Shown here: positions 229-6,117 of the stretch, piece by piece
Layout of the letters: every line of letters begins with the position of its first letter
Numbering within the stretch: position 1 is the first letter of the stretch
Assembly (NCBI GenBank): GCA_041665925.1
Contig: JBAYHW010000003.1
Coordinates: 7,737-71,736 of the forward strand
Origin: Minisyncoccota bacterium
GTDB taxonomy: Bacteria > Patescibacteriota > Minisyncoccia > Phycocordibacterales > UBA9973
Direction: 5' to 3'
Length of the DNA: 64,000 bases
The notes under the pieces: model-generated
What the model was told of the DNA's origin: nothing
What the model saw: the letters and a program-made list of their open reading frames with translations, nothing else
Database searches by the model: none
Translations under genes and position numbers: made by a program

Positions 229-477
229 TCAGTTCAATTTGTCAACAAGTTTTAACTTATCGAATCGAGATAGAGATTTAATCCTGGCTTCTTCGTGAGA
301 AGCTGTAGACCTGTTTTTAAATTTCTTAAAATACACCATTTTCACCGGCCTGCGTCCGTGAGTATACTTCGCTCCCAAATTTGAGCTATTGTGCTCCTCC
401 ACTCGTCGTTTCAAATCCGTGGTAATCCCAGTATAGAAAGTCCCATCGGCGCATTTTAAAATATAAAGATGATACAT
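229..477 (-). CDS. GIY-YIG nuclease domain protein (small UPF0213/YhbQ-like)
   Basis: 82 aa with the YILKCADGTFYTGIT...RRVEEHN GIY-YIG motif. Confidence 0.8.
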   Translation of the reverse strand: MYHLYILKCADGTFYTGITTDLKRRVEEHNSSNLGAKYTHGRRPVKMVYFKKFKNRSTASHEEARIKSLSRFDKLKLVDKLN

Positions 478-480
478 AAT

Positions 481-519
481 TTATACTATTCTCCTATTCG
501 TACGAATTAGACAATAGAG
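481..519 (-). promoter_or_regulatory. 38-bp 5-prime element with 12-bp palindrome ATTCGTACGAAT, copy 1, directly upstream of the GIY-YIG start codon
   Basis: Near-identical copy at 768-805, seen directly in the sequence. Confidence 0.6.
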
Positions 520-767
520 ATGACGGCGCGGGCTAGGGGTGGGAGTTTCGGCGCGAGCGAATAATAGCACGCTAGGCTACGCTGCTCTTTCTCGACAAGG
601 TCTGCCCCGGACAAGACAGCGAGATGCTTAGAAGTCGCCTTGAAAGAAAGTTTGAGGTGCTGGGCTATGTCGCCGACGTTCGCCTCTTTCTTCAGCTTCA
701 AAAATTTCACGACTTGCAATCGTCTTTTATTCGCGAGCGCCTTTAAAATTTTTTCATATTCTCTCAT
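507..767 (-). CDS. ArsR/SmtB-family HTH transcriptional regulator
   Basis: 86 aa with a wHTH signature VGDIAQHLKLSFKATSKHLAVL. Confidence 0.75.
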   Translation of the reverse strand: MREYEKILKALANKRRLQVVKFLKLKKEANVGDIAQHLKLSFKATSKHLAVLSGADLVEKEQRSLACYYSLAPKLPPLARAVISIV

Positions 768-805
768 ATTACTATTCTACCATTCGTACGAATTAGACAA
801 TAGAG
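768..805 (-). promoter_or_regulatory. 38-bp 5-prime element with palindrome ATTCGTACGAAT, copy 2, directly upstream of the ArsR start codon. Candidate ArsR operator.
   Basis: Direct repeat of 481-519. The copy contains TGGTAGAAT, an extended -10-like sequence, just before the ATG. Confidence 0.6.
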
Positions 806-836
806 GGGTTGGGGGAAATTGAAAAGCGAAGGCGGT

Positions 837-1121
837 TTAGATTTTGTCTTTTGGCGGGCCCCACATCCATTTAGGTTTCTCCCCTTTTTTGTATCCGAAA
901 TAAAATATAAGAGCAACCATGAGCAAGACACCGAGGAGGGCTGCGCCTGGCGAGTCATCCGCGTCCCCAATACGAATACCAAGCAAAGCAATAGCAATGC
1001 CCACTAGAACCACAGCCCATCCCTGCCAGCGTACAGGCACCCAGCCCCAGCCATACATCTTCCGCTTAAACCACAAACGCTCCGGATTGTCTTTTAGATA
1101 CGCAATATATTCTTTGGTCAT
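837..1121 (-). CDS. small membrane protein, Trp-rich (KRKMYGWGWVPVRWQGW...KGEKPKWMWGP). Paralog of 23471..23794.
   Basis: ORF with a central TM helix and a conserved motif shared with a second copy in the window. Confidence 0.6.
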   Translation of the reverse strand: MTKEYIAYLKDNPERLWFKRKMYGWGWVPVRWQGWAVVLVGIAIALLGIRIGDADDSPGAALLGVLLMVALIFYFGYKKGEKPKWMWGPPKDKI

Positions 1122-1339: not shown

Positions 1340-1693
1340 TTATTTAAAATAAGAAAAAATTGCTGCCAATACGGAAGAAACCCCAAAAATCCAAAATCCC
1401 CATTTTTCTGCTATCCTCCAGGGCTCTTTCTCCATATATTCAATCCCCTCCGGGGTTAAAATTAAAATTGTTCCCCCAGAATCTCCCCAGCGAAAGTACA
1501 GAGATCTTCCATAGTTTACCATTTGATATATGTCGGGTCCCGTTAGTTTGCCACTTGATCTATTAGCAACCTCTCCATATTGCATATTTGTAGAGTTTGA
1601 TTTTTTATACTCCTCATACATTATTTTTGTAGCAATTTTTTCTTTTTTTGTCATATTTATTTTACCTCTCCGATTATCTTTTTTATACGGCAA
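1340..1693 (-). CDS. hypothetical C-terminal tail-anchored protein. The likely start is an internal Met near 1654.
   Basis: ORF with a C-terminal TM helix. The 37-nt overlap with the upstream gene disappears if the internal start is used. Confidence 0.45.
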   Translation of the reverse strand: MPYKKDNRRGKINMTKKEKIATKIMYEEYKKSNSTNMQYGEVANRSSGKLTGPDIYQMVNYGRSLYFRWGDSGGTILILTPEGIEYMEKEPWRIAEKWGFWIFGVSSVLAAIFSYFK

Positions 1694-2433
1694 TAAGTCA
1701 ATCCATCCATTAACATAATATCAAAAATGTGCCCGACCCTCATAGGATCTTTATGCCAAGCAAAATCCATATTACCGAAGTATTTACTTTTCTTTGATAA
1801 CACCTCAAACCTATATTTGTATTCTTTGTGGGATTTCACCCATTCTGAGCTTACAATTTTTATTCTCAGTCTCTGCCCTTCGCCTTCAACACTACCGCGG
1901 ATTGTCATCTTGTTTGTGATTTTTCTACGAACATTTACATTTGATAAAACTCCTTTCAAAACGCCTTTCCTCGATTGTTTAGCCAATTTATCAACTGCTT
2001 CGTTGTGTTGATCTCCAGAATGACCTTTTACTTTCACAAAATCAACATAGACGCGAAATGTTTGACCCATTCTTCTCATTAAACGAAGGAGCTCCTTCCA
2101 TTGTTCAGTATTAGCAACTGGTTCACCATTACTTTTTAGCCATTTCATTCTTGGCCAAGTAAACATTGCTGTCTTGTAGTTATTAACCACATATTGTGAA
2201 TCGGTATAGACAACTATGTTTTCTGCTCCCTTAATATCATTTATTTTTAACACTTCTTTCAGAGCTAAAATTGGAGCTTGCAATTCCATCATGTTATTTG
2301 TGGCGCCTTTATATCCATAGGGCGTAAAATCTTTTATTTCACCACCTGGAAATATAAAACGCATACCAACACCACCCTTTCGTGGATTGGGAGCAGAAGA
2401 TCCATCTGTATATATTAAAAGGGGGTCGCTCAT
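1657..2433 (-). CDS. RNase HI domain protein with an uncharacterized C-terminal extension of about 100 aa
   Basis: The N-terminal 155 aa carry all RNase HI catalytic positions (YTDGS, MELQA, YTDSQY, GHSGDQHNEAVDKLA). The C-terminal 100 aa have no recognizable fold. Confidence 0.8.
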   Translation of the reverse strand: MSDPLLIYTDGSSAPNPRKGGVGMRFIFPGGEIKDFTPYGYKGATNNMMELQAPILALKEVLKINDIKGAENIVVYTDSQYVVNNYKTAMFTWPRMKWLKSNGEPVANTEQWKELLRLMRRMGQTFRVYVDFVKVKGHSGDQHNEAVDKLAKQSRKGVLKGVLSNVNVRRKITNKMTIRGSVEGEGQRLRIKIVSSEWVKSHKEYKYRFEVLSKKSKYFGNMDFAWHKDPMRVGHIFDIMLMDGLTYCRIKKIIGEVK

Positions 2434-2488
2434 ATTTCCACCTATTTTAACAAGTGCGGTTCTTGTTGAGCCAAATTTTTTAAATATG

Positions 2489-3124
2489 CTACCATTTCTT
2501 TTTTAATTCTTTGGATAAAAAATCCACTAGGGGTCTAGCCCAGTCTTTGAAACTAATAACGTGAGTAAATATTAATGTGCCAATCGTTATAAAGGAAATT
2601 GTATTAAAACTATATTTTTCGGACATTAAAGCAAGTAAACCAAAAGAGATAGAATTGTAGAAACAAAATGCGAAAATTTCCCCTGCATAAACCACTCTCT
2701 CTTTTAAATATTTTGCCTGAGCTTCCTTCGCGGCATAATCAAAATATATTTTTGCATCACCCCGTTGAATTGCATCAACCGCTGCATTTATTACTTCATC
2801 CATCTTTTCTTTAAAAATATCACCTTGCCTTTTTATCTCTTTCGCTTCAAAGTCTACTATTTCTCTTGTGTAAGAAATAGTTCCAATTACAGTAAAGAGG
2901 GAGAAAGTTAAAGACAAAATAAGAAATTGAAGATCTAATTGATCCTTGAAGAAAAACCCAATTCCCACAATAGCAACTACGAGGGTTGAGATTGTTTTAA
3001 ATAAATCTAATTGAGTAAGCAGTAGCTGAAAATTAGAATTTAGTTCGTAATCTGAATATTTATCTTTTAAACGGAACGAGTCCTCTATGGCTTTTACAAT
3101 TATTTTTTTATGTTCTTCGTGCAT
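2489..3124 (-). CDS. hypothetical 4-TM membrane protein
   Basis: Four hydrophobic helices with a soluble Lys/Glu-rich loop of about 60 aa. Confidence 0.55.
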   Translation of the reverse strand: MHEEHKKIIVKAIEDSFRLKDKYSDYELNSNFQLLLTQLDLFKTISTLVVAIVGIGFFFKDQLDLQFLILSLTFSLFTVIGTISYTREIVDFEAKEIKRQGDIFKEKMDEVINAAVDAIQRGDAKIYFDYAAKEAQAKYLKERVVYAGEIFAFCFYNSISFGLLALMSEKYSFNTISFITIGTLIFTHVISFKDWARPLVDFLSKELKKKW

Positions 3125-3153
3125 ATATAACTTGCAATGTATAATAGTAAAAA

Positions 3154-5199
3154 CTACTGTACATCATTATTGTTTAAAACTTTTATTACAACTCCCTGCA
3201 TTTGAATTTCTTCGTTCGATTTAAATTTCAATGGTTGGTGCTTGGAATTATCTGAGCGAGGATAGAGAACGATGAGACCATTTTCCCTACGATACTCTTT
3301 AATAGTAGCATCATCCCCAATTAGTGCCACAACCTTTTTCCCTTCTTCTGGTCTATAGTTTTTAACGCACAAAACAAGATCACCGTCATTTATTCCTGCT
3401 TTATTCATAGAATCTCCGGAAACACGCAAAACAAAATATTTTGAACCAGAAGACATATAATCCTTTCGAACAGAAATCATTTCTTGAACTGTTGGATCAG
3501 CATACATCAACTCGCCACAACCCACCGATTCAAACACGGGAACTTTTACCATTTCAAAAGTATATGGAGAGGCAATCTCTTCCTTTATCCTCTCTGGGGA
3601 ACTTGTAGGTATAGTCTTGTTATTTATAATTTTTTTGAAATATTCTCGAAGATTGTCGTCAACAATATAAATGTAAGTACCTTTTATTCCCCGAGTCAAA
3701 AGTGTCCGGTATATATTTATGATATATCTCTCTAATTCTTTAGGGTCTGCTACACCAGCGTGACCATTGCGATCACAATATTTACTCTTATCTACTACAA
3801 TCTTATTTTCATCTTTATCATAGGTAAGCTCTGGTCCAACAATGACGCCAACATAATTCATGCCGTAACCCTGGACTGTATGTATACAACCTACTTCATT
3901 AACTGCATTAGGAGAGTTGACCCAATCTTTCGTTTTACTATTCCATCGAAACTTATGCCCCTTTATTTCAATATCAAAATCTTGCTCCGGTACGCCGTTA
4001 GCTGGATTCGTAACCCAGGGCCAAGCAAACCCTGCGACCATACGTGAAAGTCCTAATTTTTTATCTTTTTCCTTTATTGCTTTGTGCATTTCCGACACGT
4101 CATCAAAAATGCTTAGTTCATAATTTTTTAAATCTGGAAACTTTGCTTTTCTTTGATTGAGGGTATCATCGATAAATAGAATATAGTCTTCCCCTGCTTG
4201 AATCCGCATTTGCTTTGTGAGTTGATAAAAGCTGGCACCTTTTTGTCGCAGGTCTACGTCATCAATATCAGCAGGAAGTACACTCTGCCCTTGATCATAA
4301 AAAAACACTTGTCTTTTCGTATTCTTAAGAATCCAATCGAGTTGAGTTGCCTCTCTCGACAATCCCAGTTGTTTATTAATCTCATCGAATGCTTTGAATG
4401 CTGCCCCCAGATTTTTGCGCTTTTTTAGCCTATGTGCTTCATCCACAATAACCAAGTCATATGACTCGTTTGTAATATCATAAGGCCCAATGACCATATT
4501 TGATTTAAGCCCAGGCGTAGCTTTAAACACTTTCTGCAGGGTGCCTCGCAAGCTAGTCATGGGCGCAATCAATGCGATTTTGAGATGCTTCGTGCTCTCG
4601 TGGTCTTTTAAGTATTTTATTAAATATGTCGCCAAGATTGTTTTGCCTGTCCCAGCTACACCTTCTACTACATAAGTAGTGGCTTTCTCATTTTCAATAT
4701 CTTTTACTAATTTTTTAACAAAAATATATTGTTCCTCGGTTAACGCTTTATACGGCGAATACTTGAAAAGATCGCTATTTTCGATCTCATAAATTTCTTT
4801 TCGGATAAGTCCTTTCTTTATTAACTCTTTCCAGATTATTTCACATTTTGCTCGATATTCTGATCTTTGATAATAATTATGATTTCTTATTCCGTCATTT
4901 TTATTCTGTAACATAAGCGACCCCTCAGCAGCTAAATGTTCTATAAGAAAAGCTTCAATATCTAGCGCTGCTGATTTGTTATATGTTTCATCGGTAATTA
5001 TATGAGCTTTCTTTAGCCTTCTGCGTTCATCATTTTCATAGTGCTGTCTACTGCGATTGAAAAAGTTTGTTGTCTCACCCACATATGCCTCATTTGTCGT
5101 TTCGAGCAAATAAACCACGGGCCAATCACATCCGTAGTGATATTTGTGTACTTCTTCAAAACCTTGCGGATTAAATTCAAAAGTTTCTATTTGCGCCAT
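3154..5199 (-). CDS. fusion of a GIY-YIG-like N-terminus, a DUF2075/Schlafen-like SF1 P-loop NTPase and a C-terminal LexA-type S24 peptidase
   Basis: N-terminal YVGETTNFFNRSRQH. Walker A GVAGTGKT and Walker B/DEAH-like LVIVDEAHRL. The C-terminus VLRVSGDSMNKAGINDGDLV...VVALIGDDATIKEY aligns with the LexA catalytic domain, including the Ser in GDSM and the Lys dyad. Confidence 0.8.
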   Translation of the reverse strand: MAQIETFEFNPQGFEEVHKYHYGCDWPVVYLLETTNEAYVGETTNFFNRSRQHYENDERRRLKKAHIITDETYNKSAALDIEAFLIEHLAAEGSLMLQNKNDGIRNHNYYQRSEYRAKCEIIWKELIKKGLIRKEIYEIENSDLFKYSPYKALTEEQYIFVKKLVKDIENEKATTYVVEGVAGTGKTILATYLIKYLKDHESTKHLKIALIAPMTSLRGTLQKVFKATPGLKSNMVIGPYDITNESYDLVIVDEAHRLKKRKNLGAAFKAFDEINKQLGLSREATQLDWILKNTKRQVFFYDQGQSVLPADIDDVDLRQKGASFYQLTKQMRIQAGEDYILFIDDTLNQRKAKFPDLKNYELSIFDDVSEMHKAIKEKDKKLGLSRMVAGFAWPWVTNPANGVPEQDFDIEIKGHKFRWNSKTKDWVNSPNAVNEVGCIHTVQGYGMNYVGVIVGPELTYDKDENKIVVDKSKYCDRNGHAGVADPKELERYIINIYRTLLTRGIKGTYIYIVDDNLREYFKKIINNKTIPTSSPERIKEEIASPYTFEMVKVPVFESVGCGELMYADPTVQEMISVRKDYMSSGSKYFVLRVSGDSMNKAGINDGDLVLCVKNYRPEEGKKVVALIGDDATIKEYRRENGLIVLYPRSDNSKHQPLKFKSNEEIQMQGVVIKVLNNNDVQ

Positions 5200-5202
5200 A
5201 TA

Positions 5203-5550
5203 CTAAAGTTCTGTGTATTTGTTGTGTCGGCCTTTGGCTTTTTTTATGGGGTATTTTTTATTATTTTCCTTCATTTTTTTTCTCAAAGCTTTTTCTATGT
5301 CTATATTTAAATCATCACTCAACAAAAGAACCCAATAAAAAACATCTGCCAGTTCATCCCCGATTTCATTTTTATTGGTTTTGATATATTTTTCAATTTC
5401 TTCTTTCGATTTCCATTGAAAGTGCTCCAGTACTTCCCCTGCCTCAAGAGACAAAGAGATTGCCACATCTTTTGGGTTGTGGAATTGTTTCCAATCTCTA
5501 GCTTCCCTGAAATCATTTATTAATTTTGTAAGAGATTTAATGGGATCCAT
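5203..5550 (-). CDS. MazG-like nucleoside triphosphate pyrophosphohydrolase
   Basis: EAGEVLEHFQWK...ELADVFYWVLLL...KYP motifs. The start was moved to the internal Met, which has an AAGGA/GGAAG RBS. The ORF-track start at 5640 adds a low-complexity N-terminus. Confidence 0.75.
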   Translation of the reverse strand: MDPIKSLTKLINDFREARDWKQFHNPKDVAISLSLEAGEVLEHFQWKSKEEIEKYIKTNKNEIGDELADVFYWVLLLSDDLNIDIEKALRKKMKENNKKYPIKKAKGRHNKYTEL

Positions 5551-5779
5551 TTTATTTCTTCCAATCCTTAATTTGAATCCCGCCGGGGATCTTTTTGACG
5601 ACCACTTTTTGCTTCTCCTTCCAGTTGAGCTTTCGGACAAGATCCATGGGTAAAGTGACAGCGAGCGATGCTCCGCCGACCTTGGTTAACTTCCTTATAT
5701 TGCTACTAGCTGATTTAGTTATTCCCATAAATACTTATTCGTTTACGCATTCGATTACGTACATCATACTCCAGCTAGG

Positions 5780-5919
5780 GGGTAAATTCAATCCCGTTAG
5801 AAGTCGCGAGGGATCTTATGACCCTCTACTTCTAACGGGACTAGTCTGAAAAAGAAATCGCCCCGACCGAAGCCGGGGCGACGAGCGTTCTGGCCGTGAG
5901 TACTAACTCGGCCAGAACG
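5780..5919 (-). terminator. cluster of three GC-rich hairpins downstream of the small GC-rich ORF
   Basis: cccgttagaagt...acttctaacggg, cgccccgaccgaagccggggcg, and gttctggccg...cggccagaac, which overlaps the stop codon. Confidence 0.45.
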
Positions 5920-6117
5920 TGATGAGGAACGGGAGCGCGACGGCCAGGGCTGTGGCGCCCCATCCGACCTGAAGCACCCGCCGCCGCAAGAAGACGAAGG
6001 GCTGTTGAGGCTCCTTGTCCTCGGCGATACGCAGCCGAAGCAACCCAGCACCGGCGAACGCCACTAGCGCCAGCGCTACCAGCACGAGGATCAAAACGTC
6101 AATTGGATTCATCTTAT
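5903..6117 (-). CDS. small 2-TM hydrophobic protein encoded in a GC-rich islet (about 62% GC)
   Basis: MNPIDVLILVLVALALVAFAGAG... with a strong AAGGAGGAG RBS. The composition is foreign to the surrounding genome. Confidence 0.4.

Follow-up and report, generated by a model that had tools for sequence, protein, structure and literature searches.

The closest known counterparts of the system reported here are the ArsR/SmtB-family proteins SmtB, CzrA and CadC, whose 12-2-12 inverted-repeat operators have been reported to carry more than one dimer, and HlyU (Vibrio), NolR (Sinorhizobium) and PagR (Bacillus anthracis), which recognise palindromic or AT-rich operators. Here we describe a locus from a Minisyncoccota bacterium (assembly GCA_041665925.1, contig JBAYHW010000003.1, positions 7,737 to 71,736; this 64,000-nucleotide stretch is referred to below as the window) in which an arsR gene lies between two copies of a palindromic element, one placed immediately before its start codon and the other overlapping its stop codon and preceding a gene for a stand-alone GIY-YIG nuclease. 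We consider it likely, from the arrangement of these elements and its conservation, that the two copies are operators of the ArsR protein encoded between them and that ArsR regulates its own gene and the one after it, along with a limited set of others that varies between lineages. In its basic workings the system is most likely to resemble a classical autoregulated ArsR/SmtB repressor acting on an inverted-repeat operator, with an unusual and well-conserved two-operator layout.

The likeness to SmtB, CzrA and CadC extends to the fold and the Pfam and NCBIfam family, to the form of the protein (small, winged-helix and presumably dimeric) and to the site, an imperfect inverted repeat with a 2-bp centre that overlaps the regulator's own promoter. 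At about 15-2-15 the operator, like the 12-2-12 sites, is long enough for more than one dimer. Unlike these systems, however, the ArsR described here has no conserved metal ligands in alpha3, alpha3N or alpha5, no metal efflux or detoxification gene follows arsR, the second operator is found at the 3' end of the regulator gene, over its stop codon, and the promoter is of the extended -10 type with a probable leaderless start. The features of the locus are as follows:

229 to 477, minus strand: stand-alone GIY-YIG gene, 82 amino acids (PF01541, E = 3.8e-16), the gene 3' of the second operator
484 to 519, minus strand: copy 1, the downstream operator candidate, CTATTGTCTA-ATTCGTACGAAT-AGGAGAATAG (direct repeat D1, palindrome I4)
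491 to 495, minus strand: AGGAG, 13 nt from the GIY-YIG ATG, in the arm of copy 1 nearer that gene; it could act as a Shine-Dalgarno sequence if transcripts read through from arsR
496 to 507, palindromic: core ATTCGTACGAAT of copy 1, overlapping the arsR stop codon (507-509)
507 to 767, minus strand: arsR, 86 amino acids, Pfam HTH_5
770 to 805, minus strand: copy 2, the upstream operator candidate, CTATTGTCTA-ATTCGTACGAAT-GGTAGAATAG, before arsR (direct repeat D1, palindrome I6)
774 to 782, minus strand: extended -10 element TGGTAGAAT, with the TAGAAT hexamer at 774-779, a 6-nt spacer at 768-773 and the arsR ATG at 765-767
782 to 793, palindromic: core ATTCGTACGAAT of copy 2, an exact match, at -26 to -15 counted from the A of the arsR ATG
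837 to 1121, minus strand: gene for a small membrane protein, 94 amino acids

All of these genes lie on the minus strand, so that in the direction of transcription the order is the membrane protein gene, copy 2 (805 to 770), arsR, copy 1 (519 to 484) and the GIY-YIG gene. A sequence-only reading of the window had drawn attention to a repeated element with a perfect 12-bp palindrome before both arsR and the GIY-YIG gene, and both the repeat and the palindrome are indeed present. The element is shorter than the 38 bp given in that reading, though, and the sequence quoted there was a blend of the two copies: a repeat finder delimits a direct repeat of 36 nt with 34 of 36 positions identical (94%) and a spacing of 286 bp, and similarity between the copies collapses outside these borders. 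On the minus strand copy 2 reads ctctattgtctaATTCGTACGAATggtagaatagtaatATG and copy 1 reads ctctattgtctaATTCGTACGAATaggagaatagtataaattATG, and each is an imperfect palindrome of roughly 32 bp. A search for further copies gave none elsewhere in the window, whether made with the perfect 12-mer or with the relaxed core ATTCGNNCGAAT, exact matches to which fall in the same two places; a single exact 12-mer would be expected by chance about 0.004 times in 64 kb. The two positions at which the copies differ are exactly those that turn the extended -10 element TGGTAGAAT of copy 2 into TAGGAGAAT, with its Shine-Dalgarno-like AGGAG core, in copy 1, which has thus lost the -10 features and gained AGGAG. 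The arsR region is somewhat richer in GC (about 44-48%) than the window as a whole (mean about 38%). Rfam returned no match over positions 1-1400 even at E <= 1, so that no known RNA family covers the element, and at gathering thresholds its matches in the whole window were two tRNAs and nothing else.

The protein encoded between the copies is an ArsR/SmtB-family winged-helix protein by domain and by fold. It scores 40.6 bits against Pfam PF01022 (HTH_5; cut-off 22) and 71.6 bits against NCBIfam NF033788 ("metalloregulator ArsR/SmtB"; cut-off 55), but at 51.2 bits falls well short of the cut-off of 100 for the SdpR autorepressor subfamily NF033789. Its AlphaFold model, a monomer (mean predicted local distance difference test score 92.9), has the order alpha1-alpha2-alpha3-alphaR-beta1-beta2-alpha5, with helices at residues 3-11, 14-26, 31-38, 42-54 and 77-85 and strands at 58-63 and 66-71, and Foldseek aligns it to HlyU, PagR, CzrA, CadC and NolR with template modelling (TM) scores of 0.78-0.85, about 0.83 for HlyU, PagR, CzrA and NolR. 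HlyU, NolR and PagR are the best matches in sequence and structure (TM 0.78-0.83), the best sequence match in the PDB being HlyU (E = 8e-13, 35% identity). Homologues fall into 711 protein clusters, nearly all of 86-90 amino acids and, where named, from Patescibacteria lineages; there are 459 matches in species-representative genomes, and a 100%-identical protein is found in a Candidatus Paceibacterota metagenome-assembled genome.

An alignment of 34 family members was used to assess residue conservation. The invariant positions are E5, A10, A12, N13, R15, R16, V31, G32, S41, F42, T45, S46, H48, L49, L52, E61 and Q62, and the recognition helix, S-F-K-A/S-T-S-K/R-H-L (SFKATSKHL), is nearly invariant and contains the sole conserved His. 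There is no conserved Cys among the 34 proteins, and neither the alpha3 CxC motif, the alpha3N Cys nor the alpha5 Asp/His/Glu ligands for metals or metalloids are conserved. Nor is the Cys pair of the HlyU/BigR/SqrR type, and the single Cys of the window protein falls in a column occupied by S, V, M or A in its relatives; in this the protein is unlike the redox or persulfide sensors HlyU and BigR. With domain and fold tests passed and sensor-site tests failed, ArsR is placed with the non-metal members of the family, NolR, PagR and HlyU, and like NolR and PagR has no metal site. No sensor site for metals, metalloids or thiols of the kinds known in the family is present, and with no known sensor residues of the ArsR/SmtB, HlyU or BigR type conserved, the suggestion that the regulator is ligand-responsive finds no support.

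The strongest evidence linking protein and site comes from related loci. We collected 80 ArsR orthologue loci from species-representative Patescibacteria genomes, chosen by protein similarity alone, and scored the 66 of them in which arsR could be placed automatically, a total of 370 kb of DNA. An exact ATTCG-NN-CGAAT core is found within 150 nt 5' of arsR in 60 of the 66 loci, between -15 and +150 relative to the arsR stop codon in 59, and on both sides of the gene in 54, whereas base composition predicts 0.38 cores in all 370 kb. The palindrome therefore behaves as a cognate operator would be expected to, as had been proposed from the window alone. The loci include members of the Nomura-, Colwell-, Uhr-, Zambryski-, Sung-, Lipton-, Kaiser-, Vogel-, Jorgensen- and Doudnabacteria, and the core is retained where the ArsR proteins of different lineages are only 40-60% identical, its invariance being paralleled by that of the recognition helix.

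This distribution bears on the simplest account of the repeat, namely that it arose by recent local duplication of the arsR promoter region and has no conserved function. The two copies in the window are, at 34 of 36 identical positions, more alike than most upstream and downstream pairs elsewhere, as such an event would predict. A two-copy architecture in 54 of 66 loci across several candidate phyla or classes contradicts it, however, as does the fact that the downstream copy is itself part of the end of the arsR coding sequence, and we regard a recent duplication as barely credible. The idea of a duplicated leader, as a local event, accordingly gives way to a two-sided architecture that its spread over many lineages shows to be ancient and phylum-wide. 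In the window, the left arm of copy 1 encodes the final ArsR residues S-I-V and the TAA stop, whose last A is the first base of the palindrome, an overlap already noted in the sequence-only reading; in context the sequence runs ATC TCT ATT GTC TAA TTCGTACGAAT AGGAGAATAG TATAAATT ATG. Amongst the 60 downstream cores scored in the orthologue loci, 23 share the last base of a TAA stop in the same way and in seven the open reading frame (ORF) reads through the core to stop in CGAATAG. Operator and ArsR C-terminus are therefore co-encoded.

The pattern of conservation within the site is equally informative. A position weight matrix gives the consensus tATTCTCTA-ATTCG-YR-CGAAT-ARGMGAATAG, in which the core is invariant and the central dinucleotide free, and such deviations from the core as occur are single, uncompensated, one-sided mismatches. 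This is the pattern of recognition by a symmetric protein dimer rather than of a hairpin, and a palindromic site is consistent with a dimer of ArsR. Upstream and downstream sites also vary together: position -5 is C in both members of the pair in 31 of the 54 two-sided loci and G in both in 10, identity outside the core is 65% within a locus but 52% between loci, and the central dinucleotide is the same in 58% of comparisons within a locus but 28% between loci. Such co-variation fits a single trans-acting specificity.

On a much less probable reading the element acts not as a protein-binding DNA site but as an RNA hairpin, formed at the 3' end of the arsR message and the 5' end of the following one and serving as a terminator, a stabiliser or a mask for AGGAG. 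In favour of this, sites frequently fall in the gap from one gene's stop codon to the start codon of the next, the CUCCU-like left arm could pair with AGGAG, and copy 1 RNA folds into the expected hairpin (-9.7 kcal/mol, z = -2.3). Copy 2 RNA, in contrast, is no more stable when folded than shuffled sequence (-5.8 kcal/mol, z = -0.27), no U-tract follows either copy, and a terminator scan predicted none at copy 1 or copy 2 and none between arsR and the GIY-YIG gene. In the related loci the one-sided core mismatches are not matched by compensatory changes, the outer arms of a single site often differ in type and are non-complementary (L005, L035 and L020), and upstream copies fused to a -10 element would lie 5' of the transcription start and hence be untranscribed. 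With weak folds, no U-tract and no covariation, a hairpin or terminator was rejected as the main explanation; we consider it quite improbable. An integron attC or restriction-site reading, weighed on the sequence alone, fares no better: the element has no attC-type GTTRRRY core and its central NN is variable, and both readings were dropped.

Further support for the operator reading comes from the position of copy 2 relative to promoter elements. From copy 2 through the start codon the sequence is CTATTGTCTA ATTCGTACGAAT GGTAGAATAG TAAT ATG, and the T of the TG in TGGTAGAAT is the final base of the core palindrome. The TAG of the -10 hexamer is an in-frame stop, which makes a longer arsR ORF impossible, and the gene combines a -10 element in the range (about 6-8 nt 5' of the ATG) taken to denote a leaderless transcript with the lack of a Shine-Dalgarno sequence. 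The same layout recurs in 77 distinct arsR upstream regions taken from the orthologue loci: TGnTAnnnT is present within 40 nt of the ATG in 46, the distance from hexamer to ATG is exactly 6 nt in 25 and 6-9 nt in 34, and a Shine-Dalgarno-like sequence is seen in one. The TGGTAGAAT-N6-ATG layout thus supports a leaderless, autorepressed arsR transcript, in line with the extended -10 promoter and autoregulation put forward in the sequence-only reading. Elsewhere in the window (5860-6111, minus strand), a small GC-rich (54-60%) membrane-protein ORF has a canonical AGGAGG spaced 8 nt from its ATG and, past its stop, a clear stem-loop with a T-run; AGGAGG thus serves as a Shine-Dalgarno sequence in this genome, which uses both Shine-Dalgarno-led and apparently leaderless starts.

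How repression might work can be sketched from this geometry. ArsR would most likely bind the ATTCG-NN-CGAAT core as a dimer, and a second dimer may bind as well, to judge from the degenerate outer half-sites (..GAATAG). At copy 2 the operator would cover -35 to -5 of an extended -10 promoter whose predicted start of transcription coincides with the A of the arsR ATG or is no more than two bases away. Since the operator is centred at -20.5, a protein bound there must exclude RNA polymerase, from which we infer that ArsR on copy 2 would repress its own gene.

The situation at copy 1 is less clear-cut. The right arm of copy 1 ends 8 nt 5' of the GIY-YIG ATG, with 29 nt separating the arsR stop from that ATG. 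Copy 1 has no -10 element of the copy 2 type, though a weak TAGTAT ends 5 nt 5' of the ATG, and it is as likely that the GIY-YIG gene is read through from arsR and translated by way of the AGGAG in the operator arm. On either route, read-through or a start at a weak promoter inside the operator, ArsR on copy 1, which sits on the arsR stop and 17 nt before the GIY-YIG start, would be expected to hold GIY-YIG expression low, either because it stops read-through from the arsR promoter or because it covers the weak TAGTAT -10. The co-repression of the nuclease gene proposed in the sequence-only reading is plausible.

Related loci lend this some weight, GIY-YIG and serine hydrolase genes being the most recurrent neighbours. 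At L063 (Doudnabacteria) a GIY-YIG homologue with 64% identity lies directly 3' of arsR with the operator in between, and has a GTG start with AGGAG 9 nt 5' of it; at L028 a homologue again follows arsR, with operators in between, and at L079 and L169 the motif precedes a homologue away from the arsR stop. The recurrence of motif-preceded GIY-YIG genes in these distant lineages makes co-regulation plausible. At L073 a homologue directly follows arsR and no site lies between them, whilst at L001 and L141 a homologue is found 5' of arsR. The latter two loci are the closest relatives of the window (ArsR about 84% identical); in each a frameshifted GIY-YIG copy (L001 2678-2930 and L141 1637-1889) lies directly 5' of the arsR operator and an intact copy about 1 kb further up, an order reversed with respect to the window.

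Must the downstream copy serve the downstream gene at all? It might instead serve arsR, as an auxiliary operator that tightens autorepression, either as a roadblock or insulator or by cooperating with the upstream site, with the downstream gene hit incidentally. Fifty-nine of the 66 loci have a downstream site although the gene that follows is hardly ever the same from genome to genome; overlap with the stop codon or C-terminal codons is seen in half of cases, and the site is kept before apparently convergent genes at L014 (pyrG-like), L032 (purF-like), L019 and L067. In the related loci gene calls were crude ORF picks, making counts of convergent and co-directional genes approximate; of 58 downstream sites 14 have no co-directional ORF within 140 nt. 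The other 44 do, and many of these ORFs have start signals of their own, either an extended -10 element and leaderless ATG or AGGAG and a start codon; identical sites also precede many genes far from arsR. The spacing between upstream and downstream operators, 286 to 376 bp, is not helically phased (Rayleigh p about 0.5 for a 10.5-bp period), so a fixed repression loop is not favoured and DNA looping between the operators was discarded as unsupported. We regard an exclusively auxiliary role as unlikely but still a live alternative. In having two operator copies that bracket or lie in the first gene, a few hundred bp apart, the locus recalls lac O1/O2 and gal OE/OI, but unlike those systems it shows unphased spacing and no evidence for ArsR tetramerisation, and its second site usually precedes the start of the next gene and may simply be that gene's operator.

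The window holds no third copy, but in relatives the motif is also found beside genes other than these two. A motif-only scan of metagenome contigs gave at least 120 loci, with 178 exact cores among the matches listed; of these listed sites 44 (26 of the 120 loci) have an arsR homologue within 200 nt, and about three quarters do not adjoin arsR. Even so, arsR is by far the commonest neighbour of the motif, the next gene family having six members: clustering of putative downstream genes gave 100 entries for arsR, six for a 580-amino acid protein of unknown function, five for an alpha/beta serine hydrolase, four each for GIY-YIG and MiaA and three each for SerS, a Mur ligase and a PIF1-like helicase, followed by many singletons. 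By crude ORF calls, 83% of sites lie outside ORFs, compared with 20% of bases.

The sites also keep fixed registers with promoter elements. We analysed 358 distinct sites, taking transcription to start 7 nt past the hexamer and using shifted positions as the control. Extended -10 elements are about 3.4-fold commoner beside sites than at the shifted controls, and operator centres group in three registers, with 30 cases at -20.5, in the fused arrangement of the window, 27 at about -28.5 to -34.5 and 14 at -40.5. Asymmetric sites have a consistent orientation, TCTCTA-core-AGGnGAATAG and then the gene, and where relatives have an AGGAG arm, an ATG or GTG follows 5-14 nt later in 8 of 18 cases, the L063 GIY-YIG gene included. 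In part of the targets, then, the proximal arm also serves as a ribosome-binding site, which places the operator in a transcribed leader.

These data speak to one further alternative, that the motif is a dispersed genomic repeat of the repetitive extragenic palindromic (REP) or miniature inverted-repeat transposable element (MITE) kind, a recombination site or the target of another factor, with arsR merely a frequent neighbour. The motif is certainly multi-copy, intergenic and palindromic, the genes next to it are functionally unrelated, and gene order around arsR varies even among close relatives. At L137 ten exact cores occupy 6.9 kb, in nearly every intergenic gap, forming a dense island (1990-5826 of Ga0193751_1000051) in a run of small genes that includes arsR. 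REP-type repeats, however, are species-specific, whereas here the same core is found across lineages whose ArsR proteins are only 40-60% identical. Nor would a dispersed repeat be expected to keep fixed registers to -10 elements and start codons, to be associated with arsR far more than with any other gene family, or to number only two copies in a 64-kb window, and we judge this explanation improbable.

The reading that we prefer, in which both copies are operators of the intervening arsR, nonetheless faces several difficulties. The link between protein and site is one of guilt by association. Copy 1 has no convincing -10 of its own, and at L014, L019, L032 and L067 the downstream copy faces a convergent gene and so cannot there be the operator of the next gene; convergent genes flank about 10% of the intergenic sites, as far as crude gene calls show. 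The putative targets (serine hydrolase, SerS, Mur ligase, ClpP, DprA, MiaA, PIF1 helicase, CYTH and DUF817) share no common function: Pfam searches with 131 putative target proteins and 10 individual ones revealed no functional theme, and a hint of DNA metabolism (DprA, PIF1, a glycosylase and GIY-YIG) is too thin to claim. The window holds only two sites, too few to show a regulon in this genome. Finally HlyU, the closest solved relative, was deposited as a transcriptional activator, so that regulation at -40.5 sites may be of either sign, whereas the -20.5 position seen at arsR in the window implies repression.

A bolder proposal, which we offer as a tentative possibility, is that ArsR forms a phylum-wide, sensor-less and self-contained operator-gene-operator cassette with its distal operator written into its own last codons and stop, such that any gene landing 3' of it would automatically be controlled by ArsR or insulated from arsR transcription. 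The cassette's sites, if this were true, would stand at helical-turn registers (-20.5, about -31 and -40.5) on extended -10, leaderless promoters.

Other features of the neighbourhood deserve brief mention. The membrane protein encoded at 837-1121 has a homologue (52% identity) at L137 5877-6164 that is preceded by an ATTCG-NN-CGAAT site; no site precedes the gene in the window. The first 228 positions of the window, 3' of the GIY-YIG gene and cut by the window edge, are GC-richer (about 49%), contain no convincing ORF and have no Rfam match even at E <= 1. An inverted repeat at 1305-1342 with 19-bp arms (TATAATCATCTCCTTACAC/GTGTAAGGAGATTAATTTA) lies between two minus-strand genes and is terminator-like on the plus strand. 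The gene at 1657-2433 (minus strand) encodes a 258-amino acid protein with an RNase H domain (residues 5-154), followed by a C-terminal extension, about 100 amino acids long, for which no family match was found. At 3154-5199 (minus strand) is a gene for a 681-amino acid fusion protein in which a helicase of the Schlafen-group-3/DUF2075 type lies between a GIY-YIG domain at the N-terminus and an S24 (LexA-like) peptidase at the C-terminus; this resembles a defence or DNA-damage-type module and places a second GIY-YIG gene at most 5 kb from the first.

Pairs of a transcription factor and a palindrome that persist across very distant lineages, and in which the regulator's own gene is the best-conserved target, are familiar from HrcA and CIRCE, the NrdR boxes and the LexA boxes, but unlike these the ArsR sites have no conserved functional core of targets beyond arsR itself. 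An operator of the form ATTCG-NN-CGAAT was not found in the literature searched, in which one variant, ATTCGCGCGAAT, was sought as a string without a match, and the same literature holds no description of the motif or of an ArsR regulon in Patescibacteria (candidate phyla radiation, CPR) bacteria, an absence that is not proof of novelty.

Patescibacteria have tiny genomes and few regulators and most are not cultivable, and to our knowledge almost nothing is known of how they control their genes. Against this background the locus offers a concrete regulator-site pair, an 86-amino acid protein that should be easy to express and a 12-bp core within a site of roughly 32 bp, conserved in hundreds of genomes and testable in vitro without the need for culturing, together with sequence-level evidence for extended -10 promoters with leaderless starts in these bacteria. 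For the genome from which the window comes, it predicts that the GIY-YIG nuclease gene would be kept low together with arsR. Across the Paceibacteria/Parcubacteria and ABY1-type lineages in which it is conserved, the protein-site pair would mark a small, lineage-variable set of further promoters, and if the cassette proposal is correct, operator-arsR-operator would join a short list of general devices by which Patescibacteria control transcription.

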